Origin: Candidatus Latescibacterota bacterium
GTDB taxonomy: Bacteria > Latescibacterota > UBA2968 > GCA-2709665
Direction of reading: 5' to 3'
DNA: 64,000 nucleotides
Assembly: GCA_965222075.1 (NCBI GenBank)
Contig: OZ244937.1
Location: 480,001-544,000 of the forward strand
The notes under the pieces were generated by a model. That model did no database searches. It saw nothing but the letters and a program-made list of their open reading frames with translations, and was not told the DNA's origin. The translations under genes were made by a program, and so were the position numbers. Below, piece by piece: positions 6,315 through 51,424 of the stretch (position 1 is its first letter; the number at the start of each line of letters is the position of its first letter).

Positions 6315-6931
6315 GCCTGCCTGCGCCAGAGCGGCTCTCATTACTCCCCCCTTGAGGGGGAGTCGCAGAAGCCGAGCCGGTCCCCTGAGCCTTGTCCTGA
6401 GCCTGTCGAAGGGTAGTCGAAGGGCAGGCGACGGCTGATGCGGTGGGGGGACCAAGCGTGGCTACTGCCCTCAAACCCTGCAAAACCCCCAACCCTCCGC
6501 AATCCCCCCCTCCCTCCCTCCCTTCCCTCCCATGCCTTCGGCGAGGCCTTTTTCTTGCACGCCCAAGAAAAAGGCCGAAAAAGAAGGGCGCCGCTCAGGC
6601 GCCGCGGGGGCTGCTTTTCCGCGAATTGTCCCTGGGGCGGAAACGGAAGCTTCTGCCCTGCGGACCTTTGAGGTGTTCCTGGGGGTGGCGCCGGACGGAA
6701 CCGCGCGGAAAAGCCCCTTCCCTTCACCAAATACCCTTTCTCCCAACGATTCTTCCAGAGCTGTCTCCGCTTCCCTCGAAAAACCCTGGAACACGGGCGT
6801 CTCGCCGGAACGAGGGCATCTTGCCCTCGACAGCAAGCGGGCAAAGGGCAACCACGAGGGTTGCCCCTACGACAATCCAAATTCCGTCCACATCCACCCT
6901 CCCGCAGGGGCGGTTCGCGAACCGCCCCTGC
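6315..6931. repeat. Cluster of several REP-like palindrome families, partly nested
   Basis: ACTCCCCCCTTGAGGGGGAGT (6343), nested TGAGC..GTCGAAGG units (6379-6423), GCTGCTTTTCCGCG..CGCGGAAAAGC element shared with 57511-57636, GGGCAACCACGAGGGTTGCCCCTAC (6846-6870), GCAGGGGCGGTTCGCGAACCGCCCCTGC (6904-6931). Confidence 0.8.
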
Positions 6932-8714: not shown

Positions 8715-9054
8715 TAACAAAAGAGTTAACAGTCTGTCCGGTGAAGCTGTCAGCATCTCCGGACTCGCTGTGCATGATCGGAAAATGCCCACTCGCATTG
8801 CGGGTGGGTTTTATTTTGTCCATCGGAAATCCCTTTGGAAGTGGTGATGCGTAGAAGCCCATTTCTCTAAGTTTTGTCGTCGTATTCTGGTATGCGTTCG
8901 CACCTGCCTGTGCCGGGCACGGCAGACAGGTCGCTTTTTCAGCCTGAGGTTGCCAGTATTCAATTTTGTGAGCCCGTTTGGTCAACCGTCGGATAGACTC
9001 GTGGGTGGATAAGGCTGGGTCAAGCTGCGCCTCGACGACCCGCTTGACCTGGTG
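8715..9054 (-). mobile_element. Transposase C-terminal remnant (IS701-like)
   Basis: 'QVKRVVEAQLDP...KIEYWQ.QAEKA..(H)..LREMG' resembles IS701-family C-termini (recalled similarity, not searched). Carries a palindromic micro-insert. Confidence 0.45.
8903..8930. repeat. CCTG..CAGG micro-insert, 28 bp, at A^T
   Basis: CCTGCCTGTGCCGGGCACGGCAGACAGG. Confidence 0.8.
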
Positions 9055-13522: not shown

Positions 13523-13827
13523 TGTCAACAACGATTTGGTTTTCGACAGATCCACCGGTTTAGAATTGTCATCGTGGTAGGGGCGCCCCTTGTGGGCGCC
13601 CGCCCCCCCTTGCTGGCTATCTTGAAGGAGTTGGAGAAGGGAGACTCGTAACGATGTCCAGGTCCGACAAACAGCCCTGCCTGCCGAGTCAGGGGCATCG
13701 ATGCCGGGTAATGCCGACGCCTGCCTGCGCCGAGTCCTGCTCGGCAGGCAGGGAGGAAAGGGGCCTGACTTCGGACACGCTTGGGAAGGGGACAAAGGTC
13801 TGGAGAGTGGCGCAAGCCTATAACCTC
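13523..13827 (+). repeat. Composite dispersed repeat, copy 1 (GTAG-REP plus micro-insert at 13720-13752)
   Basis: 13523-13593 matches 18339-18409; 13563-13685 resembles 18813-18940; 13649-13827 resembles 27524-27706. Confidence 0.85.
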
Positions 13828-14200: not shown

Positions 14201-14311
14201 CTAGTGGTCAGTTTCAGAAGTCCACATGAAGGAAAAATGTCGCAGAATCACACGGAATTACTCAGAAGGAATCCACAGAAACTCATACGAACTTGAGAAA
14301 TCGACCACTAG
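14201..14311. mobile_element. MITE (111 bp) with CTAG ends
   Basis: Inverted repeats CTAGTGGTCAGTTTCAGAAGT / ACTTGAGAAATCGACCACTAG. Confidence 0.75.
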
Positions 14312-14351
14312 GGATAACGGAATCCTAAGTCACTTACGATGGAGGTTTGCG

Positions 14352-16376
14352 ATGAATTTTAACGACAATCCAATTGAAGAGAGCCAGCAAGATAGTATCG
14401 ACAGAACTGCTCTCGCTGAAAAATTCGCTCAGCAAGTACTGGATCTTGATGCCTCCAATGGGATCGTAGTGGGCGTCCTTGGTCCTTGGGGTTCCGGAAA
14501 AACATCCTTCGTCAATCTAGCACGGAGAGAGTTCAATGAGAGGGAAATTCCGATACTCGAATTTAACCCTTGGATGTTTAGCAATACGGGGCAACTCGTT
14601 AAATCGTTCTTTGCCGAGTTCGTGGCGCAACTAGAGCTAAGAAATGATGACGACCTTGCCAAAATAGGTGCAGCTATATTGAATTACGCTCCGTTATTCC
14701 TTAGCCTGTTGCCCGGGGGCCAAATTGTCGGCACCTTTGCGAGATTAGCAGGTGATACTATTGGCCGTCGGAACAGAAGTGTTGAGCATGAGCGGAGCGA
14801 GATCGAAGAAGCGCTTTCTGGACTCGACAAACCGATTATTGTGTTACTTGATGACGTTGACCGATTGACCACATCGGAGATCCGAGATGTATTTAAGCTG
14901 GTTCGCTTGATTGCCAACTTCCCGAACGTCATTTACATCGTAGTTTTTGACCGAGACCGCGTCGAGCGTGCACTGGATGAGCGTGGTATAAAGGGTCGGG
15001 ACTACATCGAGAAAATCCTTCAATTTTCTGCAGATTTGCCGGTAGTGTCCCGTCACGTACTCTGCCAGCAGATTCGCTCAGCAATTGTTAGTGCTCTCAA
15101 CGAAGTTGATGATCCCGGCCCGTTTGATGAGCAGGTCTGGTCTGGTGTCTTGCAGCGGGTCGTCGCTCCACTAATCCAAAACATGCGAGACGTTAACCGA
15201 TATTCAGTTTCTATTCACACTGCTATAAGATCTCTTGAAGGGCGAATTCAGCTAGCCGACCTTTTCGCACTCGAAGCCGTTCGCATGTTTCTTCCGGATG
15301 TTTTCAAGCTCCTACACGGCTCTATCGATGACCTAACGAGCCCTAGAGATCCCAACAATGGACACGGTGCTTCCACGCCGCCGGCACACCCTACGGTAAT
15401 CGTCAAGGCCTTAATTAAAGCCGCCGGCGATCAGAAACAACATGTCGTTGAAAGTATGATTGAACTACTCTTTCCGGCTGCAGCACACAATGTCGGTGGC
15501 AGTGCCTTCCAAGGGGAAGGGACTAAAGAGTGGCTTAAGGAGCGTCGCATCGCGTATCCGGACATCTTGAAGCTCTATCTGGAGCGTCGCGTTAGCGAAC
15601 ACTTGCAAGCGTTCATTGACTCAGAACGGGCATGGGAAAGAATGCATGAACTCAATGACTTCGAGGAGAATTTGAACACTCTCAATCCGGCAAATATACA
15701 TAACGTGATTGCATTGCTAGAGTTGTTCGAAGACCAATTCACCTCAAATCATGTTATACCAGGTATTACCGTTCTACTCAATCTTTTTTCGGCTCCCGAA
15801 TGCCGCCGGGAAAAATACGACTTGTCTCTCAGCGATACGGTAAATCGCATCACAGGTCGGTTGTTAAGATCTCTGGATGACCATCAGAAACTCAACGAAG
15901 CAATACACGACACGTTAGGCAATTTAAGGTCATTGTCGTCCAAATGGAAACTCATCACCATCGTCGGACACCGAGAGAAGACGGGGCAAAAGCTGGTATC
16001 GGAGGATAAAGCGTTGGAACACGAGAAAGATTGGCGTGTTGAAGTCCGAAGAGCCCGAGTCGACAATCTTTTGAAGGAGTATGACCTCTTCCGAATTCTC
16101 CTTGATACGAAGCACGACGCTGCTCCTTCAGAAGACCCGCTAGCAATCGACGACTCACCGGAGATGACGTTTGCCCTACTTTATACTGCTCAGAGAGAGA
16201 CCAAAAATCAAGCAATTCAGAGTTCCGCCTGGAAAAATCTAATCTTTCTGTACAACAATGAGGACAAGTTGATAACGCAGGTTCAAAATCTGCGCAGTGC
16301 AGATCCAGAGAGATTCTGTAACTATATCAGACTTGCGAACGAATACCTCTCACCAGGGGGTCGAGGTGTTCCATAG
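14352..16376 (+). CDS. KAP-family P-loop NTPase
   Basis: RBS GGAGG. GPWGSGKTS Walker A, EFNPWMF, LLDDVDRL Walker B, YIEKILQ. Lower GC than the flanks. Confidence 0.9.
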   Translation: MNFNDNPIEESQQDSIDRTALAEKFAQQVLDLDASNGIVVGVLGPWGSGKTSFVNLARREFNEREIPILEFNPWMFSNTGQLVKSFFAEFVAQLELRNDDDLAKIGAAILNYAPLFLSLLPGGQIVGTFARLAGDTIGRRNRSVEHERSEIEEALSGLDKPIIVLLDDVDRLTTSEIRDVFKLVRLIANFPNVIYIVVFDRDRVERALDERGIKGRDYIEKILQFSADLPVVSRHVLCQQIRSAIVSALNEVDDPGPFDEQVWSGVLQRVVAPLIQNMRDVNRYSVSIHTAIRSLEGRIQLADLFALEAVRMFLPDVFKLLHGSIDDLTSPRDPNNGHGASTPPAHPTVIVKALIKAAGDQKQHVVESMIELLFPAAAHNVGGSAFQGEGTKEWLKERRIAYPDILKLYLERRVSEHLQAFIDSERAWERMHELNDFEENLNTLNPANIHNVIALLELFEDQFTSNHVIPGITVLLNLFSAPECRREKYDLSLSDTVNRITGRLLRSLDDHQKLNEAIHDTLGNLRSLSSKWKLITIVGHREKTGQKLVSEDKALEHEKDWRVEVRRARVDNLLKEYDLFRILLDTKHDAAPSEDPLAIDDSPEMTFALLYTAQRETKNQAIQSSAWKNLIFLYNNEDKLITQVQNLRSADPERFCNYIRLANEYLSPGGRGVP

Positions 16377-16794
16377 ACGAATCGTTCGGCGTGCCTGCGA
16401 TAGACGTGGTTGAGCACCTGTTGTCTGGCGGTTTGAGTCCGCCGTGTCACGCCGTCGTGCGCGGTGTCGTGCGTCCTGAGAACCGGAGAAGTGCCCCGGG
16501 TATGATGTCTTCAGCTGTGGCATAATCGCCAAGAGTTTGCTGTACCTGCTTTCGATGCCGCGCCAGAAATCGTAATGTATCTACTTAGTGGCTACTAAAC
16601 ATTCGGTGTGTTGTTTTTATTGGAGTTGGGATGTTTAAGTCGAAACAAATGGCGGAACGTTCGCGCCTGTTTGGAGAGACGGTCGTGTTTGATACGCACT
16701 AAAGTGGTCGCATTGGCAGCCACAATAACCATGCCAATTTGAATGGATGCGCCTTGATGTCCACGATATTTAATCCGTGTTGCACCTCGACAGA

Positions 16795-16821
16795 CCTGCC
16801 TGTGCGTTGCACGCAGACAGG
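16795..16821. repeat. Micro-insert, 27 bp, at A^T, in frame
   Basis: Removal gives TTLICRG. Confidence 0.85.
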
Positions 16822-17147
16822 TAAGGGTTGTGATCAGGTTTTCAACGAAGGGACGACTATAGGCACAGGCGTGAGCAATTTTGATCTGAGTGGCGTTTTG
16901 TTTTTCTTCCAAGCCGGGTATGTGAAGCGCCTCCTTGATCATTTCAGGCGTGGGCACTTTCGGGATCGGTGCGATTGAACTGGGAATGCCCAGGGTTGCG
17001 ATCCCTCGAAAGTGGAGTTGATTTCTCAGATTGGGATCATCCAATCCCAAGTCGCCAGCCAAAGATCGAATGAGCGGTTTTCGTCTTTGATATGCAAAGT
17101 CGAGCAAGTCGATGGCCCCATCAACAGTCTGCACAAGAGGCAAGGCA

Positions 17148-17174
17148 CCTGCTTGCGCGCTGCGCGCAGGCAAG
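17148..17174. repeat. Micro-insert, 27 bp, at A^T, in frame (decayed ends)
   Basis: Removal gives DASYALPLV. Confidence 0.8.
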
Positions 17175-17319
17175 TAAGAGGCATCATGCTGGATTGCCCA
17201 CAGGCAGATGATAGCCAAAGATGAAGCCGGTTCCCATCTCAGCGATGATACCTGGTTTTTTCCCGAATTGGCAGGGACAGTTGCTCTTGCCTTTCTTGAT
17301 CGGGGCGATCGTCGGGTCA

Positions 17320-17349
17320 CCTGTCTGCGTGCGGTGACGCACAGGCAGG
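17320..17349. repeat. Micro-insert, 30 bp, at A^T, in frame
   Basis: Removal gives VNAYDPTIAP. Confidence 0.9.
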
Positions 17350-17753
17350 TAGGCATTGACGATTTTACAGTGATCCAATTTTTCCCGTTGACCAACTGTC
17401 GTGATTGTTTTTCAATGTGTCGATGGGCCTGGAGAGCCTCGTCGAGTTTGTGCATCAACCGCTCTTGCTGCACCTGGTCTATGGCGATGTCTTTTTGCAG
17501 GTGCATTTGGGCGCAAAGGGCAAGCGGCGTAACCTGACATCCAATAGAAAGCAGCCGTTTTTCAGTCTCTCGAACCCATTTGAGATAGACTTTGCCCTTG
17601 CCCCGGCATTGTCTGCCAAAGGTGCGCATCTGCGCCTTGAGATCCGTTTGCAGGGTCTCTGCTTCGGCTTGGATGCGGCTGCCCCCTGCGGTGAAAGGGG
17701 CTATTTGTTGGATGATTTGGAGGATTTTTTTCGCTTTATAAAGCGTCGTGGCA

Positions 17754-17786
17754 CCTGTCTGCCGTGCCGGGCACGGCACAGGCAGG
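17754..17786. repeat. Micro-insert, 33 bp, at A^T, in frame
   Basis: Removal gives RVTDATTLYK. Confidence 0.9.
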
Positions 17787-17885
17787 TCCGTAACCCGTTG
17801 GGAGCCTTGCTCAGCGGGAAACGTATCGACCACCAGGTGCTGGGGAGAAACCAGCCCTTCCTCCATGGCCTCTGCTGCCTGGATT

Positions 17886-18267
17886 GGAGTTACCCCGGTT
17901 TAGTGGACGGTTTTAGGCTTGGGTATCAAGCCCATGATTGATGGTTGTTTTCGTAGGTTGTGGGTGAGTGGTACCCCAACGCTGAATGCCTGCGATGTGG
18001 ATTGTACCACCCCTCGATGTATTCGAAGAGGGCCTGTTGCGCGTCCTGGAATGTGCGGAAGCAGTGGCGGTCGAGGAGTTCGCATTCTACTGTGGCGAAG
18101 AAACGCTCGCACATCGCGTTGTCAAAGCAGTCTCCGACGGATCCTGTGGAGGGACGGACACCGGCCTTCTTGCAGCGCAGACCAAAGGCGAGTAAGGTAA
18201 ACTGCGATTCCTGGTCGGAGTGATGGATCACGTCCTTGGGACGACGCTGCCACAAGGCCATGTCCAC
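17886..18267 (-). mobile_element. IS3-family remnant (orfB C-terminus plus terminal IR)
   Basis: 'IHHSDQ.SQF..G.CFDNAMCE.FF..YIEGWYNPHRRHSALGY.SP' and IR-like GGAGTTACCCCGGTTTAGTGGAC. Confidence 0.85.
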
Positions 18268-18338
18268 TCTCGGACTCGCTCTGCTGGCCTGGAAGGGCGA
18301 TTCAGGGAGGGTACCGACACGTTCCTCGCGCCCGTGAC

Positions 18339-18959
18339 TGTCAACAACGATTTGGTTTTCGACAGATCCACCGATTTAGAATTGTCATCGTGGTAGGGGC
18401 GCCCCTTGTAGGCACCCGACCCTCGGAGGCGCGATGGTCACCGTTACAGAAATCAGGGCAACCACAAGGGTTGCCTGCCTGCGTAGCGGTCTGCCTGCCT
18501 GCAGCGCGGTGCGCCGCGCAGGCAGGCGCTGCAGGCAGGCCCCTACGTTGGGTGACGCGGTCGGCGCGTGCAACGGACCGGGTTTGGGGACAATTCGATG
18601 CGATGGAATACCGATACCACATACCCAATCCCATCCGCATCCACCACCCGCAGGGGCGGTTCGCGAACCGCCCCTACAAAGACCGCCATGACATCGATAT
18701 GGAATTTCTGACCGATTCCCAACCATCGAAATGGACGGATTCGTTGTCATGTCCAACCGATTCCCATCCGTGGTTATGAACACATTCGTTGCAATGCCCA
18801 ACCCCATCCACGGAATTGTCATCGTGGTAGGGGCGCCCCTTGTGGGTGCCCGCCCCCCCTTGCTGGCTATCTTGAAGGGGTTGGAGAAGGGAGGCCGATA
18901 ACGATGCTCAGGTCCGACAAACATCCCCGCCTGCCTGCGCTGGCGCGCCAGCAGGCAGG
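18339..18959. repeat. REP and composite-repeat cluster, with a doubly nested micro-insert (18474-18539) and a 30-bp insert (18930-18959)
   Basis: GTAGGGGCGCCCCTTGT at 18394 and 18828; GCAGGGGCGGTTCGCGAACCGCCCCTAC at 18650; REP 18456-18546 split by nested inserts. Confidence 0.85.
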
Positions 18960-20409
18960 GATGTCCATTCTGGTGATTGATGACGATCCGGAAATCCGGT
19001 CTTCCGTGGGGATGTTTCTGCAGGCGCGGGGGCATATGGTCTACGAGGCCGCGGACGGGTTTGTGGGTATGAAGGTGCTTCGGAGGGAGGCTGTTGACAT
19101 CGTGATCACGGATGTGAAGATGCCGGGGATGGATGGGTTCGAGGTTTTAAGGGAGGTCAAGCGTCTGTCTCCTGATACGGAGGTGATTGTGGTTACGGCC
19201 TTCAGTGAGGTCGAGCATGCGTTTCGGGCGATGCGGGATGGGGCATTTGATTTTTTCACGAAGCCGTTCAGGGTGGAGGAGCTGAACGCCTCTTTGCAGC
19301 GGACCATGCGTTACCGGGCGCTTCATCAGGAGAAGAACAGGATGCAGGCGCGTCTGGATCGCATCAAGGCGGAGTCCAGGCAGCGCTTTGGTCTGGCGGC
19401 GATTGTGGGGGAGAGTGGGGCCATTTGCGCGGTGCGGGAGCAGGTCCGGCAGGTGTGCCAGTCCGGGGATACGACGGTGCTCATCTGCGGCGAGACGGGT
19501 ACGGGCAAGGAGCTGGTGGCGCGGGCCATTCACACCGAAAGCGCCCGTGCGGGCGGACCGTTTGTGCCTGTGAATTGCTCGGCCATCCCTGAGGCGCTGT
19601 TTGAAAGCGAGTTTTACGGCCACGAGCGGGGTGCGTTCACGGATGCCCGGCAGGCACGAAAGGGCCACTTTGAGCAGGCGGACGGGGGCACGCTGTTTTT
19701 GGACGAGATCGGCGATATGGACCCGGGGATGCAGAGCAAGCTGCTGCGCACTTTAGAGGAGAAGCGGTTCCGTCCGGTGGGCGGGTCCAAAGAGGTTGCG
19801 GTGGATGTGCGGGTGGTCTCGGCCACGAACCGGGACCTGTCCGGGATGGTCCGTGAGGGTGTTTTTCGGGAGGATCTGTTCTACCGGCTGAATGTGTTCG
19901 CCATCCGGGTTCCACTGCTGCGAGAGCGTTTGGAGGATATTCTCCCACTGGCGCAGTATTTTTTAAGTCGGTATGCGGAGGAGATGCGCAAACCGATCCG
20001 GGGGTTTGCCCCGGAGGCCGTGGCGCTGCTAAAGGCCTACCCTTTTCCTGGCAATGTTCGAGAGTTGAACAATACGATTGAACGGGCTGCGATTCTGTGC
20101 GGGAACGGTCAGGTGAGGGCAGATCACCTGCAGGATCTGACTGTTGGGGCCTGCCTGCGCCGAGATCTGCCCGGCAGGCAGGCGGGTGGACCGCCTGCCT
20201 CCTGTGAGGCGGAGGGCTTGCCTGCTGCGCTGGATGTGGCCGGGGTGGAGAGCCTGAATCTGGACGCGCTTGAACGACAGGCGGTGGGGGAGGCCATCCG
20301 CAGGTGCGATGGAAATCAGGTTCAGGCTGCCGGGCTGCTTGGTATTTCGCGCAATACCCTCCGTCGCCGGATCAGGGCATACGATCTGGTGGAGGGATCA
20401 GCATTCTGA
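18904..20409 (+). CDS. sigma54-dependent response regulator (NtrC/AtoC family)
   Basis: REC domain (VIDDD, TDVKMP, TKPF), AAA+ GETGTGKE, GAFTDA, FLDEIGDM, Fis-type HTH. Start is 18904 (RBS GGAGG) or 18961. Confidence 0.93.
   Translation: MLRSDKHPRLPALARQQAGMSILVIDDDPEIRSSVGMFLQARGHMVYEAADGFVGMKVLRREAVDIVITDVKMPGMDGFEVLREVKRLSPDTEVIVVTAFSEVEHAFRAMRDGAFDFFTKPFRVEELNASLQRTMRYRALHQEKNRMQARLDRIKAESRQRFGLAAIVGESGAICAVREQVRQVCQSGDTTVLICGETGTGKELVARAIHTESARAGGPFVPVNCSAIPEALFESEFYGHERGAFTDARQARKGHFEQADGGTLFLDEIGDMDPGMQSKLLRTLEEKRFRPVGGSKEVAVDVRVVSATNRDLSGMVREGVFREDLFYRLNVFAIRVPLLRERLEDILPLAQYFLSRYAEEMRKPIRGFAPEAVALLKAYPFPGNVRELNNTIERAAILCGNGQVRADHLQDLTVGACLRRDLPGRQAGGPPASCEAEGLPAALDVAGVESLNLDALERQAVGEAIRRCDGNQVQAAGLLGISRNTLRRRIRAYDLVEGSAF
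20150..20182. repeat. Micro-insert, 33 bp, at G^C, in frame in the AAA-HTH linker
   Basis: CCTGCCTGCGCCGAGATCTGCCCGGCAGGCAGG adds 11 aa. Confidence 0.85.
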
Positions 20410-20423
20410 ACCCGGGGTTGCTG

Positions 20424-20442
20424 CCTGCCTGTTGCAGGCAGG
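20424..20442. repeat. Minimal micro-insert, 19 bp, intergenic
   Basis: CCTGCCTGTTGCAGGCAGG. Confidence 0.75.
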
Positions 20443-20480
20443 TATGAAAGATCGGGTCCGGATCAAGGAGTTGGGAGGAT

Positions 20481-23400
20481 ATGGCAATGAAATTCACGAG
20501 AAGGTCTGTTGGTGGATTGTTGGTGGGGATGGGGATTGCTTTCGCAGGGCTTGCTTTTGTGTATGCCCAGACCGCAGCGGATGCGGATTTTGACGGGGAT
20601 GGCAAGGTTGGGTTCAGCGATTTTGTGTCGTTTGCAGGCAAATTCGGGACCAGTCGAGGCGATGGGAGGTACGAGGCGAAGTACGATCTGGACGGCGACG
20701 GGCAGGTGGGTTTCACGGATTTTGTGGCGTTCGCCGGGTTTTTTGGTCAGAGCGCCGTTCCCAACGAGGCGCCGATATTGGAGCGGATCGGCGACCAGGG
20801 CGTACCAAAAGGCGTTACACTGATCATCGAACTGGCCGCTTCCGATCCGGACGGGGATGATCTGGACTACCGGGTGAGCGGTCAACCGGAGGGCTCGTCG
20901 CTGTCCGGGTCCACCTTCCGCTGGACGCCCACGAGCGGTGAGGACGACACCCACCGCATCACCTTCACGGTAAGAGACAGCCGGGGCGGGAGGGCTTCGG
21001 AGACGATCACCGTGAGGGTGGTGGAATTTCGGTTCAGGCTGGTCGAGCACCGGATTACGACCGAGGAGCCCAGCTTTGTCAATATTCTCTTCCAGGTAAT
21101 CGACTCCGACAACTGGGGGGTGACGTCGCTGACCACCGAACACTTTGAAGTGCGCGAGGACGATCAGGTGGTATCCCCTACCGAGTCGGCCATGCGCGTC
21201 CAAAAGCGGGAGGCCATTCCGCATCGTTTCAAGTTGAAGACCGTTCTGATGCTCGACACCAGCACGAGCGTAAAGGACCACCTGGAGCAGATTAAACAGG
21301 CGGCGGTCATTTTGGTGGAAAACATGACCGAGAACCAGGAGATCGCCCTGTACGAATTCTCTGAAAAGCCGGAGCGCTTGCAGGATTTCACCAACGATGC
21401 AGCAGCCCTGACCAAAGCGATTCGGGAAATTCGTTTGGGCTTTCCCACCACCAACCTGTACGGAAGCATTATCACCGGAACCCGGCGGTGGGCGGATATC
21501 TTCACCACAACCGAAGTCCAGCAGGGGTTTCTGGTTATCCTGACCGACGGAAGCGACACGCAGGGGTCTTATACGCTATCGGAGGCGCTTGCGGCGCGGG
21601 GAAACAAGAATGTCTACACCATCGGGCTGGGGAACGAGATTGACCCGGACGTCCTGCAGGAGCTGGGCAACGCCGGGTTTTTCCAGATTACGGACGTGAG
21701 CAAACTGGCTGACCAGCTGGCCGAGAGGTTTATCGAGATTCAAAAAAGGATCGTCTCGTTCGCCGACAGTTTCTACTGGCTGAGATACCTCAGCCCCAAG
21801 CGTGGGGACAGAGAGCATTCGCTGGCGGTGATTGTGAAGGGGAATGAGGTCAATTACTCGATCGAAGGGAGTTTCAATAGTAGGGATTTCTATTCGGTGC
21901 GTCAGGGCGTTTTCGTCAACACCTCGCCTTCCAATGCGGAGGGAATTGAAGAACTAAGGATGGCCAAGGGCGATTCGATTCGCCTCCAGGCGGTGACATT
22001 TCCGGAGCTCAAGTCCCCACAGTATATCTGGGAGACGAGCGACCGCGATATCGTCGCGATCAAGCCGGATACGCTTGATGCATCGGTGGCGTGGACGATT
22101 GCGGTTGGGGACAGCGGTCAGACGGCGACTTTGACGGTGTTTGACCGGGCGAATGAGTTGGACGGGCAGGTGCAGGTGCATGTAGGAGTAATCGGAACAG
22201 GCTTCTTCGCCCTGCCGGGAGGCGCATTGATGGAGATGGTGCGGATACCGCCGGGGACGTTTCGGATGGGATCGCCTCCATCAGAGGAGGGTCGTTCTTC
22301 GGCTGAGGAGCCGGTGCATGAAGTGACGATCAGGCAGGGATTTTACCTGGGGAAATATGAGGTCACACAGGCGCAGTGGGAGGCGGTGATGGAGAGCTAC
22401 CCGTCAAAGTCCAAGGTATGCGGAGACTGTCCCGCGGAAAACTTATTTCGGCACGAAGCGCAGGCGTTTATTCGGAAGCTCAACGAGATAGAGGGAGAGA
22501 ACCGGTATCGTTTGCCGAGCGAGGCGGAGTGGGAGTATGCGGCGCGTGCGGGCACGACGACGAGGTATAGCTGGGGGGATGAGATCGGCACCAACCGGGC
22601 CAATTGCCGTCGTTGCGGCAGTCAGTGGGACGAAAGGGGGATAGCGCCAGTGGGATCGTTCCCTGCCAATGCCTGGGGCCTGTACGACATGCACGGAAAC
22701 GTGCGGGAGTACGTGCAGGACTGCTGGGTAAACGACTACCGGAGGGCGCCTGCTGACGGCTCGGCGGTGGAGGGCGACTGCTCTAGACGCGTGGCGCGTG
22801 GCGGTTCGTGGGACGACTTCCCCGACGCCCTCCGCTCGGCGAGCCGATCTGGGAAGGACGACAGTTACTATTCCACATATCGGATCTTCTACAATGGCTA
22901 CGGTTTTCGAGTTGCCCGGACGGTCCCGGAGGCGGACCGCGAGGCGCTGGTGGCGCTTTACAATGCGACCGATGGGGACAACTGGACGGATAAGACCAAT
23001 TGGTTGACGGACAACGACCTTTCAACCTGGTTTGGCGTCACGGTATCCAATGGTCGGGTCACGTCCCTGGACCTGAGAGAAAACAACCTGACTGGCGAGA
23101 TCCCACCCCAATTGGGCAGCCTGACCAGCCTTGACAGCCTGCGCCTCGACCACAATGCACTTTCCGGCCCGATTCCCCCAGAATTGGGGAACTTGACCAA
23201 AATGAAGAGGCTGATTCTTTTCAGCAACCAGTTGAGTGGCACGGTTCCACCCGAATTAGCCAAACTATCCAACCTTGAGCGGCTGATTCTTTTCAGCAAC
23301 CAGTTGAGTGGCACGGTTCCACCCGAATTAGCCAAACTATCCAACCTGAAGTGGCTGTATCTTTCCACCAATCAGTTGAGTGGTTCGATTCCTGTGGAAT

Positions 23401-27523: not shown

Positions 27524-27706
27524 TAACGATGCTTAGGTCCGACAGACAGCCCCGCCTACCTGCCGAGTCAGGCGCATCGATGCCGGGTAATGCCGACGCC
27601 TGCCTGCGCCGAGTCCTGCGCGGCAGGCAGGGAGGAAAGGGGCCTGACTTCGGACACGCTTGGGAAGGGGACAAAGGTCTGGAGAGTGGCGCAAGCCTAT
27701 CACCTC
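27524..27706 (+). repeat. Composite dispersed repeat, copy 3 (33-bp micro-insert at 27599-27631)
   Basis: Near-identical to 13649-13827. Confidence 0.85.
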
Positions 27707-37434: not shown

Positions 37435-39246
37435 ATGATTAAGGAGGGCTGGGTGGCTGATGCAAGAAGGAGCAATCGGAAGCTGCTGGATTGGGTTGAG
37501 GAGGTAGCCAGGCTCTGTAAGCCCCAGAGCGTGCACTGGTGTGAGGGTTCGCAGGAGGAGTACGACCGGCTTGCACGATTGATGTGTGAGACCGGCACGT
37601 TCGTCCGGCTGAACCCCGCGTTGCGTCCCAACAGTTTTCTCTGCCGTTCGGATGCGGGGGATGTGGCCCGGGTGGAAGACCGCACCTTTATTTGCACCAC
37701 AAAGCGGGAAGACGCCGGACCGACGAACAACTGGAGCGATCCCGCTGAGATGAAGACCATCCTGCTGGGCCTGTTTGAGGGGGCGATGCGGGGGCGGACG
37801 ATGTATGTGATTCCGTATTCGATGGGGCCTGTGGGCGCATCCAGCTCCAAGATTGGGGTGGAGATTACGGATTCTCCTTACGTGGTGTGCAGCATGCGGA
37901 TTATGACCCGCATCGGAAACCGGGTGCTGGAGGCGCTGGGCGACGGTGCGTTTCTGCCCTGTTTACACTCGGTGGGCGCGCCCCTGGCGCCGGGACAGAA
38001 GGATGTGTCCTGGCCCTGCGATGCGGAGCGCAAGTATATTGTTCATTTTCCCGAGGACCCTTCCATCTGGTCCTACGGCTCGGGCTACGGCGGGAATGCC
38101 CTGCTGGGCAAGAAGTGCTTTGCGTTGCGCATTGCTTCGAAGATGGCGCGCGACGAAGGGTGGATGGCCGAGCACATGCTGATTCTGGGCCTCACTTCGC
38201 CCGAAGGTCGGAAGACTTATATCGGCGGAGCGTTCCCCTCGGCCTGCGGCAAGACGAACCTGGCCATGATCCAGCCCACGGTTCCGGGCTGGAAGGCGCA
38301 ATGCGTGGGCGACGATATCGCCTGGATGCGGCAGGGGGCGGACGGACGGCTCTGTGCGATCAATCCGGAGTCCGGGTTTTTCGGGGTGGCGCCCGGGACC
38401 AGTGAGGATTCAAACGCGAATGCGATGGCCGCGCTGACCAGGAACTCTATTTTTACCAATACGGCATTGACGTCCGAAGGGGATGTATGGTGGGAGGATA
38501 TGACCGGGAAACCGCCGCCCGGGCTGGAGGACTGGCTGGGCCGGCCCTGGGAGCCGGGCCCGGATGGGACGGCCTCCAATCCGAATGCCCGGTACACCGC
38601 CCCGGCGGCGCAGTGCCCGGTTATTGATCCGGACTGGGAGCGTCCCGACGGGGTGCCGATGGCGGCCTTTATTTTTGGCGGCCGGCGTTCCAGCATGGTG
38701 CCGCTGGTCTACGAGGCGTTCAACTGGACGCACGGCGTTTTTATGGGGTCGACCATGGGGTCGGAGACCACAGCCGCGGCTGCGGGCGCGGTGGGGAAAC
38801 TTCGCCGGGACCCGTTTGCCATGCTGCCCTTCTGCGGATATCACATGGGCGACTATTTCCAGCACTGGCTGGATATGGGAGAAAAGCTGAGGGAGAACGC
38901 GCCCAGGATTTTTTGCGTGAACTGGTTCCGAAAGGACGCGGACGGCGGCTGGCTCTGGCCCGGGTTCAGGGAGAACAGCCGGGTGCTGAGGTGGATTTGC
39001 GAGCGGATCGAGGGGGTGGCCGACGCGGTGGAGACGCCGATCGGCCTGGTGCCCACGCGGGAATCGCTGGATATGGATGGGCTGGATCTGCCGGAGGCCC
39101 ACATCGAGGAGCTGCTTTCGGTGCAGGCCGAGGACTGGCTGCTTGAGGTGCCCCGGATTCGCGAGTTCTACGCCCGGTTCGGAGACCGCCTGCCGGGCGC
39201 GCTGGCGGCAGAACTGGATGCGCTTGAGAAGCGGCTGAATCGGTGA
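37435..39246 (+). CDS. pckG: GTP-dependent phosphoenolpyruvate carboxykinase
   Basis: [45 protein letters not shown]. Confidence 0.96.
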
Positions 39247-50107: not shown

Positions 50108-51424
50108 CTACGCCCCTGCGTTCAGGCCTGCCTGCCGCGTCTGCGGCGCAGGCAGGCGCGCAAGTGCCCGGTGGCCGATGTCCTTCCGGCAGTACATGTC
50201 TTTGAATTCGATCTTTTCCACGGCCTGATAGGCCCGCTGGATGGATGCCGGGATGTTGTTACCAAGGGCGGTGACGCCGAGTATCCGGCCGCCGTTGGTG
50301 ACGAAGCGGCCGTCGCTTCCGGCCGTGCCTGCGTGGAAGAGGACCACGTCGTCGGGGGCTTCGGCCCGGTTGATGCCGGAGATGGGATAGCCCTTTTTGT
50401 AGTCGCCGGGATAGCCCCCCGAAGCGATGACAACGCAGGTGGCGGCGCGGTTGTCGATTTCGACGGAGACGTCCTTGAGATTGCCTTCACAGACGCCTGT
50501 GAGGAGGTCAACGAGGTCGGTTTTGAGCAGGGGGAGGACAACCTGGGCCTCGGGGTCTCCCAGGCGGCAGTTGAATTCGATGACTTTGGGGCCGTCGGGA
50601 GTCAGGATGATCCCGCCGTAGAGGATGCCTCTGTAGGGACGCCCCTCGGCGGCGAGGGCCTGCACCGTGGGCTGCATGATGCGGTCGTAGATTTCCTGCT
50701 GGAGCTCGGGGGTGACCACAGGGGCGGGCGCATAGGCGCCCATGCCGCCGGTGTTGGGGCCGGTGTCTCCCTCTCCGATGGTCTTGTGGTCCTGGGAGGG
50801 GACGAGGTAGACGATGTGCTCCCCGTCGGTGAAGCCAAAGATGGAAGCTTCCTCGCCTTCGAGCCATTCCATCAGGACCACCTTGTCTCCGGCCGCGCCG
50901 AAGACCCGATCGACCATGACCTTTTCGATGGCCCGGAACGCTGCGTCGGCTGTGGGACAGGGGATGGCGCCTTTGCCCATGGCCAGGCCGCTGGCTTTGA
51001 AGTAGAGGGGGCGGTCCCACTCCCGGACGCAGGCGCGGGCGGCTTCCGGGTCGGTAAATGATCGGTAGTCGCCGGTGGGGATGCCGTATTTGTGCATCAG
51101 TTCGAGGGCAAACTCTTTGTCGGCCTCGATCTGCGCGGCGGCCTGCGTGGGGCCGAAGATGGTGAGGCCGCTTTCCTGAAACCGGTCTACGATGCCGTCG
51201 GCCAGGGGGTTCTCCGGGCCGATGAGGGTGAGGTCGATGCCTTCCAGTTGGGCAAAAGCGAGGAGGCCGTCGATGTCTTCGGAGGCGATGTCCACACATT
51301 GGGCCTGCTGCGCCATCGCGGCATTTCCAGGAGCGGCGTAGAGCCTGGTTACTCTGGGGCTCTGGGCGATCTTCCAGACGAAGGTATGTTCGCGGCCTCC
51401 GGCGCCGACGATGAGGATCTTCAT
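50108..51424 (-). CDS. purD: Phosphoribosylamine-glycine ligase
   Basis: GAGGREH, GPNTGGMGAY, EFNCRLGDPE. 10 extra C-terminal aa come from a micro-insert. Confidence 0.97.
   Translation of the reverse strand: MKILIVGAGGREHTFVWKIAQSPRVTRLYAAPGNAAMAQQAQCVDIASEDIDGLLAFAQLEGIDLTLIGPENPLADGIVDRFQESGLTIFGPTQAAAQIEADKEFALELMHKYGIPTGDYRSFTDPEAARACVREWDRPLYFKASGLAMGKGAIPCPTADAAFRAIEKVMVDRVFGAAGDKVVLMEWLEGEEASIFGFTDGEHIVYLVPSQDHKTIGEGDTGPNTGGMGAYAPAPVVTPELQQEIYDRIMQPTVQALAAEGRPYRGILYGGIILTPDGPKVIEFNCRLGDPEAQVVLPLLKTDLVDLLTGVCEGNLKDVSVEIDNRAATCVVIASGGYPGDYKKGYPISGINRAEAPDDVVLFHAGTAGSDGRFVTNGGRILGVTALGNNIPASIQRAYQAVEKIEFKDMYCRKDIGHRALARLPAPQTRQAGLNAGA
50127..50156. repeat. Micro-insert, 30 bp, at G^C, in frame in purD
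   Basis: CCTGCCTGCCGCGTCTGCGGCGCAGGCAGG; removal gives RALARLNAGA*. Confidence 0.85.

Follow-up and report, generated by a model that had tools for sequence, protein, structure and literature searches.

Hairpin Inserts in a Latescibacterota Transposase Gene as Copies of a Dispersed Family of Very Small Mobile Elements

A transposase gene within a 64,000-nucleotide stretch of a Candidatus Latescibacterota bacterium genome (contig OZ244937.1, positions 480,001 to 544,000; hereafter, the window) is interrupted by four short palindromic inserts, referred to here as hairpin units. There is little doubt that the inserts belong to a dispersed family of mobile elements that are very small, do not code for protein, and insert exactly. 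An initial annotation of the window, made from its letters without database searches, had proposed a non-autonomous family of micro-elements that integrate without target duplication, and this is borne out by the empty sites of related genes and by a census of the genome, which consists of a single contig of 5.36 Mb with a G+C content of 59%. The four inserts, their host gene, and other family members of the window are listed in Table 1. Positions are those of the window unless they are given as genome positions.

Four Insertions in One Transposase Gene

The host of the four inserts is an ORF (open reading frame) of 423 codons, and a Pfam search with this ORF found no family. Weak matches to ISNCY/IS5 transposases occur in the middle of the gene, in another reading frame. 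A copy of the gene exists in a genome of the same class but a different family (G057, locus L004), where the reading frame (388 codons) is open through the catalytic part and matches NF033593, an ISNCY model, with E=2e-15. Since that match is far below the curated cut-off of the model, the host is named “ISNCY/IS5-like”, and membership in the family is not claimed.

Aligned as DNA, the two genes share 1115 identities over 1305 columns, or ~94% identity outside the gaps. Of the 120 gap columns, 117 correspond to exactly the four units (33 + 30 + 27 + 27), the other three being single-base indels. The A and T that flank each unit in the window stand adjacent in G057, i.e., no base is gained or lost upon insertion. 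All four empty sites thus confirm what had been read from the interrupted gene by itself, including the clean peptide junctions that are left by excision. A detail to be added concerns the unit at 16795, which divides an Ile codon of the host and changes ...TLICRG to ...TL-TCLRATHRQV-CRG. The initial annotation also described a common pair of termini, CCTGYCTG and CAGRCAGG. All four units are present and three of them fit this description, whereas the second (17148) is of the form CCTGCTTG...CAGGCAAG and is missed by the regular expression that the annotation supplied.

All four units recur elsewhere in the genome as identical or near-identical copies. The unit at 16795 recurs unchanged at other sites, the one at 17320 has identical copies at genome positions 2498224 and 1667562, and the one at 17754 has eight exact 33-bp copies in either orientation. 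About ten exact copies (27-31 bp) are known for the unit at 17148, which is also a frequent host of nested guests.

Two further differences from G057, the -1 and +1 indels, are ~190 bp apart and place the catalytic middle of the host gene out of frame. To judge from its reading frames, the gene is probably dead, i.e., a pseudogene, unless assembly errors lie within it. As a consequence, the in-frame state of the four inserts says little by itself. The description of the family as “frame-preserving” carries little weight for this garbled gene, but it does hold genome-wide, as outlined below.

Table 1. Hairpin units of the window and the transposase gene that hosts four of them.
Feature	Length	Position in window	Position in genome	Remarks
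Host gene, ISNCY/IS5-like DDE transposase		16595-17866 (minus strand)		Single-copy; broken by four inserts and by single-base indels (-1 and +1)
Hairpin unit CCTGCCTGTGCGTTGCACGCAGACAGG	27 bp	16795-16821		A left, T right; absent from G057 homologue; splits host-gene Ile codon
Hairpin unit, subtype CCTGCTTG...CAGGCAAG (plus strand)	27 bp	17148-17174		A left, T right; absent from G057
Hairpin unit CCTGTCTGCGTGCGGTGACGCACAGGCAGG	30 bp	17320-17349		A left, T right; absent from G057
Hairpin unit CCTGTCTGCCGTGCCGGGCACGGCACAGGCAGG	33 bp	17754-17786		A left, T right; absent from G057
Family member	28 bp	8903-8930	488903-488930	Found by regular expression
Family member	33 bp	13720-13752	493720-493752	Found by regular expression
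Family member	33 bp	18494-18526		Within repeat-rich spacer; found by regular expression
Family member	30 bp	18930-18959		At or just before the start of an NtrC-type regulator gene
Family member	33 bp	20150-20182		In frame, in the linker before the helix-turn-helix domain of a sigma-54 activator gene (18904-20409); adds ...CLRRDLPGRQAG...
Minimal family member	19 bp	20424-20442		Two 8-bp boxes and a 3-nt loop
Family member	33 bp	27599-27631	507599-507631	Found by regular expression
Family member	30 bp	50127-50156		In frame, close to the C-terminal end of a 439-aa ORF

Filled and Empty Sites Elsewhere

Pairs of filled and empty sites are also found outside the window. For example, purL, which was recognized by its Pfam FGAR amidotransferase domains, is 18 codons longer than its counterpart in a genome of the same genus (G001), with which it shares 90% protein identity. 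The difference is made up by two inserts, a 33-mer flanked by G and C and a degenerate 21-mer flanked by A and C, and the codons become colinear once both are removed. In another pair of genomes, a 33-mer is located downstream of a gene resembling those for REP-associated tyrosine transposases (RAYTs; REP, repetitive extragenic palindrome) in G021, and the same spot in G009 is without a unit.

A third case is provided by a family of 200-290-bp repeats. Among 35 aligned copies, a 33-mer is either present or absent at GGGCG/CCGC, where the slash, here and below, marks the point of insertion. One copy has a 27-mer nested inside that very 33-mer, right after the box (CCTGCCTG/CGCGG), and other copies of the repeat carry 33-mers at different positions. 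The repeat itself is MITE-like (miniature inverted-repeat transposable element) or else a conserved terminator or small-RNA module. It occurs at genome positions 4835707-4835997 and in at least 35 more copies, and is seen in the window at about 6481-6747 and 37513-37645. Variable ends surround a GC-rich core (...GGCCTTTTTCTTG...CCCAAGAAAAAGGCC...), and the repeat is a frequent landing place for hairpin units.

The targets of insertion comprise genes, spacers, other repeats, and other units. In nested arrangements, the commonest position of the guest is the inner edge of the 8-bp terminal box of its host, as observed in 10 of 38 left-side and 7 of 28 right-side cases, with duplicate copies included in these counts. 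A 54-bp composite, consisting of a 27-mer inside a 27-mer, is found at several sites with unrelated flanks. Either such a composite moves as one unit, or the position of the guest is a strong hot spot; the hosts differ in their loops, which makes the two hard to tell apart. All of the documented insertions, whether in the transposase gene, purL, or the repeat family, are single hairpins and not doublets.

Evidence from sequencing reads is confined to assembled contigs. Some of these contigs jump by 33-34 bp at sites in the window (17758 to 17793, 18492 to 18526, and 20147 to 20181), with three runs contributing at the 18492 and 20147 sites. The short sides of these jumps are 20-30 letters long, save for 65 and 92 letters at 17758 to 17793. 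They may stem from repeats or from other organisms and, being weak, are not counted as polymorphism. Peaks in contig depth at the elements likewise reflect the recruitment of foreign contigs.

Number, Structure, and Flanks of the Units

Applied to the whole genome, the regular expression of the initial annotation matches at 234 places, and a reversed-pattern control at none; the abundance of the family is not due to chance. A looser pattern, with termini CCTGYYTG...CARRCAGG, returns 244 non-nested units that represent 123 distinct sequences when strands are merged, with a single sequence recurring up to 13 times. This count of 244 is an undercount, as both patterns miss the unit at 17148 and the degenerate 21-mer of purL. 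Units range from 19 to 46 bp, with modes at 33 and 27 bp.

Each unit is a GC-rich imperfect palindrome that ends in an invariant pair of 8-bp boxes, CCTGYCTG...CAGRCAGG. Folding of both strands yields an outer stem of 7-8 bp formed by the boxes, a one-sided bulge of 2-3 nt, a variable inner stem of 4-9 bp, and a loop of 3-6 nt. On one of the strands, a 5′ tetranucleotide, CCTG, is left unpaired beside the foot of the stem. The side of the bulge was used to assign an orientation to each unit. A search of window positions 16000-21000 against Rfam gave chance-level matches only.

The bases that flank the units follow a simple pattern. Purine/pyrimidine (R/Y) flanks are seen at 194 of 244 units (80%), and comprise G/C (85), A/T (63), G/T (24), and A/C (22). 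The A/T target that had been proposed therefore holds at the four inserts of the transposase gene, but the rule of the family as a whole is purine/pyrimidine, with A/T at 63 of 244. For 200 oriented units with duplicate flanks removed, the left flank has C at -4 in 100, C at -3 in 81, A at -2 in only 5, and a purine at -1 in 174. In the right flank of the same 200 units there is a pyrimidine at +1 in 183, T at +2 in 3, G at +3 in 80, and G at +4 in 104. The profile is thus symmetric, and the weak target consensus can be written as not-A, R / Y, not-T. By way of a tetra- or pentanucleotide target, there is this weak consensus alone (C at -4 in 100/200, not-A at -2, R at -1), and it is weaker still in other phyla. 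Orientation is unrelated to the strand of the host gene.

Units are concentrated in certain places. Four lie within 1.3 kb in the transposase gene, and eight each are found at 4022-4024 kb and 2829-2833 kb of the genome. They are very dense in dead insertion sequences (ISs), where the genes are those of DDE transposases of several families. This density may be due to the neutrality of such DNA or to local hopping.

A sequencing adapter or an assembly artifact was entertained as the source of the units and dropped in light of the in-frame bias, the R/Y rule, and the orthologous empty sites.

Units in Coding DNA and the Bias of Their Length

Genes were called with a simple, home-made scorer of codon usage; these crude calls amount to 3573 genes that cover 82% of the genome. 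Only 86 of the 244 units are in called genes and 158 are outside of them, which is far from the expectation for 82% coding DNA (binomial p ~1e-59). The length bias toward multiples of three (3n) that was noted for the inserts of the transposase gene extends to the family, as 75% of the 244 units have such a length. The proportion is higher in genes (78/86) than outside (105/158; Fisher p=2e-5), and both are far above one third. In addition, 222 of 244 units are free of stop codons in all six frames.

Units that are 3n in length and stop-free add 9-12 residues when in coding DNA and do not break the gene, and non-3n units are depleted from genes. Among the hosts with confident domains are PurL, an AcrB-type pump, a hydantoinase, a molybdenum hydroxylase, a UvrD-like helicase, HsdR, and an ABC transporter. 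With respect to position in the ORF, 22 of the 86 units fall in the first tenth and another 12 in the last. All three frames (45, 24, and 17 of the 86) and both orientations are represented among the 86 units, giving peptides such as LPA...QAG, PAC...AGR, and CL...RQ. A conserved peptide motif was considered as the basis of the family and discarded, since reading frame and orientation vary among the units (three frames, both orientations) and most units are intergenic.

Selection would clear frameshifting copies from genes and leave 3n stop-free lineages with far more room to persist. In a genome that is 82% coding, the additional room for such lineages may also explain why 3n units dominate between genes.

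Distribution among Relatives, Other Phyla, and Viruses

Copy number varies widely among close relatives. In 60 related genomes, it ranges from 0 to 279 within one genus and stands at 160 versus 3 in another, and a genus of a second family has 117 versus 0-10 copies; reversed-pattern controls gave 0-2. In an even sample of the phylum (151 genomes), 14 genomes have at least 10 copies, all of them in family f1 (12/22) or f2 (2/31), with genuine units present at low numbers outside these two families. Low but real copy numbers are also typical of nearly all genomes of genus g2.

The family is not restricted to the phylum. The 27-mer of the unit at 16795, with its 2-nt loop left free and thus 25 fixed bases, matches at least 118 stretches of named records. 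Those listed include Thermodesulfobacteriota, Nitrospirota, Verrucomicrobiota, Kiritimatiellia, Planctomycetota, Chloroflexota, Acidobacteriota, Bacillota, several Pseudomonadota, Latescibacterota, and others. ORFs of the Latescibacterota loci show 75-92% identity to the present genome, in keeping with its probable placement in that phylum. A match binned as a Methanosarcinales archaeon is a weak case, being on a contig of 3.8 kb. Mis-binning cannot explain all of the cross-phylum matches, since several of these are on contigs of 0.1-2.3 Mb. Among the matches listed, loci in other phyla have a G+C content of 31-72%, and 108 of their 138 units have R/Y flanks. Individual metagenome-assembled genomes (MAGs) hold 47 units (Opitutales), 34 (Bacillota), and one each (Gallionellaceae and Mariprofundaceae). 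The 27-mer is also present in 17 stretches of viral contigs. A 33-mer, searched against 72,556 plasmids, gave no match.

Two observations on type I restriction-modification methylases can be placed beside this distribution. The HsdM encoded at genome positions 1837828-1839360 shares 87% identity, across 216 residues, with an ORF from a Nitrospira record (L114), and the HsdM of record L123 has an N-terminal insert, LPVRGTQTG, from the same hairpin family. Separately, the control pattern (GGACRGAC...GTCYGTCC) has 55 matches in one genome of the sample (G122) and nine each in G067 and G073; a different palindromic family with mirror-image ends may exist.

Mode of Transposition

A single rule of cleavage and rejoining, C-N-S-R/Y, would fit the left junction (R/C), the right junction (G/Y), and the empty target (R/Y). 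The junction of a would-be circle (G/C) would also be an R/Y step, and the 3′ end of the element, CAGG with its C at -4, resembles the consensus ahead of the target cut (C-C-S-R). Because junctions, target, and 3′ end all fit, one cut-and-rejoin rule would suffice. Only the terminal boxes would be needed in cis. The element would be moved in trans by an enzyme outside the known transposases that leave no duplication, with the folded, single-stranded hairpin being excised and re-inserted by “peel and paste” through a cut-and-rejoin enzyme of the phosphotyrosine type. This route is favored since one rule for all junctions is what is seen with enzymes that carry DNA on a tyrosine and act on single-stranded hairpins, and it is put forward as a tentative choice. 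The element family and the single-strand route, taken together, form the best explanation as a whole, and one that we hold to be modestly probable.

Several observations weigh against this explanation. No enzyme has been found, as every candidate family tested fails to co-occur with the element. Where units of this genome lie close together, the intervening ORFs encode a sigma factor, GluRS, a methylase, a glycosyltransferase, and IS remnants, none of which recurs, and an all-against-all comparison of ORFs from the 118 listed loci of other phyla returned only common families (ABC transporters, NtrC-type regulators, and kinases). Orientation shows no bias with respect to replichore (47:42 vs. 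68:57, Fisher p=0.89, with origin and terminus placed by cumulative GC skew), whereas a single-strand route of the IS608 type predicts one. The two flanks conform together (R at -1, Y at +1), which a symmetric double-strand cut explains equally well, and C at -4 of the left flank is found in 50% of units here versus 34% (47/137) in other phyla. The view that only the boxes matter is based on the composite units at several sites, and repeated hits on a single hot spot are equally possible. Evidence for present-day polymorphism is weak, consisting as it does of contigs with short sides. Lastly, given the crude gene calls, some insertions in the first tenth of an ORF may in fact precede the real start codon.

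The lack of replichore bias and the symmetry of the target keep a double-stranded route alive. According to this alternative, the two 8-bp boxes are bound by a dimeric enzyme (a transposase, recombinase, or nuclease-ligase pair of an unrecognized kind), which makes flush cuts at both ends of the duplex and inserts it at a flush cut in a symmetric R/Y site. The profile CCSR/YSGG, in which R at -1 is accompanied by Y at +1 in 157 of 200 units, agrees with such a scheme, as do the flush insertion, the absence of strand or replichore bias, and an excess of complementary flanking bases in this genome (105 observed vs. 71 expected). However, there is no such excess in other phyla (55 observed vs. 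62 expected), and complementarity at flank positions 2 and 3 is below expectation. A duplex of 19-33 bp is too short for synapsis by bending, so that one complex would have to hold both ends. Moreover, IS110 and IS607 enzymes were not found in the element-rich genomes searched, and no bacterial transposase is known to insert duplex DNA flush. We consider a double-stranded route unlikely, even though it is foremost among the alternatives to the favored single-strand route.

Search for a Mobilizing Enzyme

The initial annotation saw no mobilizing gene in the window, and none was found there. It had also attributed the insertions to transposition of the HUH/Y1 kind, i.e., to mini-elements of the classical REP/REPIN or IS200/IS605 types that are moved by a Y1 HUH transposase (RAYT or IS200-like TnpA) encoded in the genome. 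There is much in the elements that recalls such systems, including imperfect palindromes of 20-40 bp in hundreds of copies, with 158 of 244 in the 18% of the genome outside the called genes, the lack of target duplication, and an unpaired CCTG at the foot of the stem that is akin to the GTAG tag of REPs. The genome also has an intact IS200-like TnpA gene, a broken second copy, and a RAYT-like gene that the PF01797 search missed. In genus g2, genomes with weak RAYT-like matches tend to be richer in units, with 105, 279, 22, 2, 4, 66, 87, and 240 of them, as compared to 0, 2, 6, 16, 3, 22, and 136 in those without.

Upon inspection, the Y1 genes nonetheless speak against this attribution. The RAYT-like gene (genome positions 3242106-3242850; ~248 codons; HUH motif NHVH) is bracketed by 140-bp direct repeats (module G000:C1:3241492-3242970), each of which contains three GTAG/CTAC-tagged palindromes. 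These are the RAYT's own REPs, and the whole is a classical REP-RAYT module. Thus, where units flanking a RAYT or Y1 gene might have been looked for, there are GTAG-type REPs with no CCTG unit nearby. The RAYT-like genes of G009 and G021 are likewise situated among REPs of the GTAG type, and RAYT-like genes in the Opitutales and Bacillota MAGs have no unit within ~1.5 kb. The end hairpins of the intact IS200-like copy are unrelated to the element. Nor do PF01797 matches track copy number, since 136 elements are accompanied by no match in G019, whereas G004 has 2 elements and 32 matches, G038 has 1 and 61, and G058 has 0 and 19; G012 and G017 also have no match. Together with the absence of a replichore bias and the insertion of single hairpins in place of doublets, these findings leave the HUH/Y1 attribution, as first made, unsupported, and a known Y1 enzyme ranks, as an improbable mover, just behind the double-stranded route.

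Other candidate families fared no better. PF01548 (IS110) has no match in G000, G002, G018, G020, or G024. PF04986 (IS91/Y2) is absent from three of the four element-rich genomes searched, and the lone match, in G000, has an internal stop. No match to NF033518 (IS607) was found in any genome with at least 10 copies among the 36 searched, and neither PF07282 (TnpB) nor PF04754 (Rpn nucleases) co-occurs with the element. The 17 viral loci yielded phage structural genes. In a tblastn search of element-neighboring ORFs against the genome, high identities were limited to relatives plus one type I methylase in common with the Nitrospira record.

The spread across phyla without a traveling gene keeps another alternative alive, in which there is no dedicated enzyme. 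Here, a housekeeping enzyme of single-stranded DNA, e.g., type IA topoisomerase, moves extruded hairpins, and copy number is a matter of horizontal seeding and loss. Type IA topoisomerase prefers C at -4 of its cleavage site; the 3′ end of the element is always CAGG, with C at -4, and C also occupies this position of the left flank in 100 of 200 units. The failure of all dedicated candidates tested points in the same direction, as does the presence of genuine units, if only a few, throughout nearly all of genus g2, and the presence of the same 27-mer in distant phyla and viral contigs is easier to understand if nothing has to travel along with it. On the other hand, the Gallionellaceae and Mariprofundaceae MAGs hold a single, unamplified copy, and the plasmid search with the 33-mer found no match. 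PF01131 (type IA topoisomerase) is found once in every genome searched, whatever the copy number, which makes presence or absence uninformative. On these grounds, we place a housekeeping mover third among the alternatives and think it improbable as well.

Of separate interest is the length of the topoisomerase gene. The topA match spans 1338-1341 bases in G009, G011, G012, G017, G019, G020, and G021, as opposed to 1278-1293 elsewhere, and the longer form resembles a 15-codon in-frame insertion common to one sub-clade.

Finally, the units might be scars left by excision of a larger transposon that ended in CCTG...CAGG, or what remained of it after internal deletion. Constant ends with a variable center are what deletion derivatives have, and units do cluster in and around dead ISs. 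Yet no pair of CCTG...CAGG ends with matching arms and a spacing of 0.3-8 kb encloses a candidate parent in the genome; the only perfect long-range pair of ends is formed by two copies of the composite hairpin. Furthermore, identical short units are found at many unrelated sites, including housekeeping genes, and the empty sites are intact. This makes an origin as scars or remnants very improbable. A crossover on a 2-bp core was also considered and set aside, as copies flanked by A...T do not fit.

A bolder proposition is that of a self-contained mobile DNA of 19-36 bp that crosses phyla, has phage contigs among its carriers, and is moved by either a new enzyme family or a hijacked housekeeping enzyme of single-stranded DNA. 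We regard this proposition as rather doubtful in its entirety. If a mover outside the known classes is indeed involved, the 3n stop-free design would represent an adaptation of a DNA parasite to the protein genes of free-living bacteria.

Comparison with Known Systems

REPs are imperfect palindromes of 20-40 bp with tens to thousands of copies, which are mostly intergenic but are also described within genes, where they add a few residues (PMC3733652). The initial annotation had emphasized a size far below that of MITEs. At 19-46 bp, the size stands, but it is not without precedent in view of the REPs just mentioned. The GTAG and CGTC families of REPs, as described in PMC3733652, resemble the present family in size, in having >100 mostly extragenic copies, in G-T pairing in stems, and in an unpaired tetranucleotide at the foot of the stem, and the CGTC families also have no dedicated transposase in sight. 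Differences are equally apparent. The ends here are CCTGYCTG/CAGRCAGG with no GTAG or CGTC tag, and “cctg” is not in the main text of PMC3733652. A strong 3n stop-free design, insertion of single units with clean empty sites, and the lack of a RAYT link further separate the family from REPs. A mobile REPIN is a doublet of inverted REPs, as opposed to the single hairpins found here. REPIN-RAYT systems have been described as mostly vertically inherited, unlike the near-identical hairpin copies that occur across phyla and on viral contigs.

Rickettsia palindromic elements are comparable in that they are in-frame palindromic repeats of unrelated, functional genes to which they add a peptide, but the elements treated in PMC10969869 are ~150 bp long, encode a conserved peptide, and are restricted to Rickettsia, in contrast to units of 19-46 bp that are read in three frames and found in many phyla. 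IS200/IS605 elements and their miniature derivatives, which undergo single-strand “peel and paste” in the account given in PMC6006769, share the lack of target duplication, the recognition of hairpins, and the use of one cleavage rule. They differ in that there is here no co-occurring Y1 gene, a weak consensus where those elements have a fixed tetra- or pentanucleotide target, no replichore bias, and one hairpin in place of distinct left and right ends. MITEs, with their 50-500 bp, terminal inverted repeats, target duplication, and parent IS, differ from units of 19-46 bp that have neither duplication nor a parent with these ends. Helitrons are known to insert at A/T. Unlike IS91/Helitron elements, only 63 of 244 units here are at A/T, and the Y2 enzyme (PF04986) was mostly not found in element-rich genomes.

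GC-rich palindromes of 30-60 bp that spread, sometimes in frame, and have no known enzyme also occur in mitochondria, namely the GC clusters of yeast and the double-hairpin elements of fungi. These mitochondrial elements are organellar, reside in AT-rich genomes, have short target duplications, and are unrelated in sequence. The small dispersed repeats of cyanobacteria studied by Elhai et al. are reportedly 21-27 nt long, form hairpins, and are mobile as judged by comparison of related loci, with no enzyme having been identified; their sequences and hosts differ from those considered here. A literature search on REP, REPIN, Rickettsia palindromic element, and MITE topics and with 12-13-mers of the element, exclusive of supplements, yielded no description of the hairpin family. 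In sum, this is a REP-like, enzyme-orphan family of micro-elements with blunt insertion, set apart by its ends, the absence of a RAYT, single-hairpin insertion, 3n design, and spread among phyla.

The manner in which REP-like palindromes spread has been debated for decades, and clean evidence for insertion of single hairpins, as offered by this family, is scarce. The family provides dozens of pairs of filled and empty sites, a simple rule for its ends, nested insertions, and sister species with 0 versus >200 copies. It also illustrates that a tiny selfish element can add loops of 9-12 residues to essential proteins such as PurL and not kill them. Such inserts are a source of variation in protein length as well as of annotation and alignment artifacts in MAGs.

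Neighborhood of the Transposase Gene

The in-frame insert at 20150 is also present in a paralogue at genome position 2829405. A spacer at 18385-18900 is filled with short repeats; their translation, on both strands, reads ...GAPTRGAPTTMTI... and ...VGAPLVGARP..., and contig depth over the spacer is very high in all four runs, which points to a repeat common to many organisms.

The transposase pseudogene is adjoined by a C-terminal fragment of an IS3-type integrase with rve domains (17926-18267, minus strand). The end region of this fragment recurs at five to six other places, including genome positions 2831119-2831234, 1755464-1755575, and 3421924-3422040. The stretch with the IS3-type fragment and the NtrC-type gene is partly duplicated at 2829-2833 kb of the genome, and the copy of the regulator there has the hairpin insert as well. 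A gene for a KAP-family P-loop NTPase (14226-16376, plus strand) lies immediately upstream of the IS remnants; its codon usage is deviant, the gene caller passed over it, and it is probably foreign DNA.

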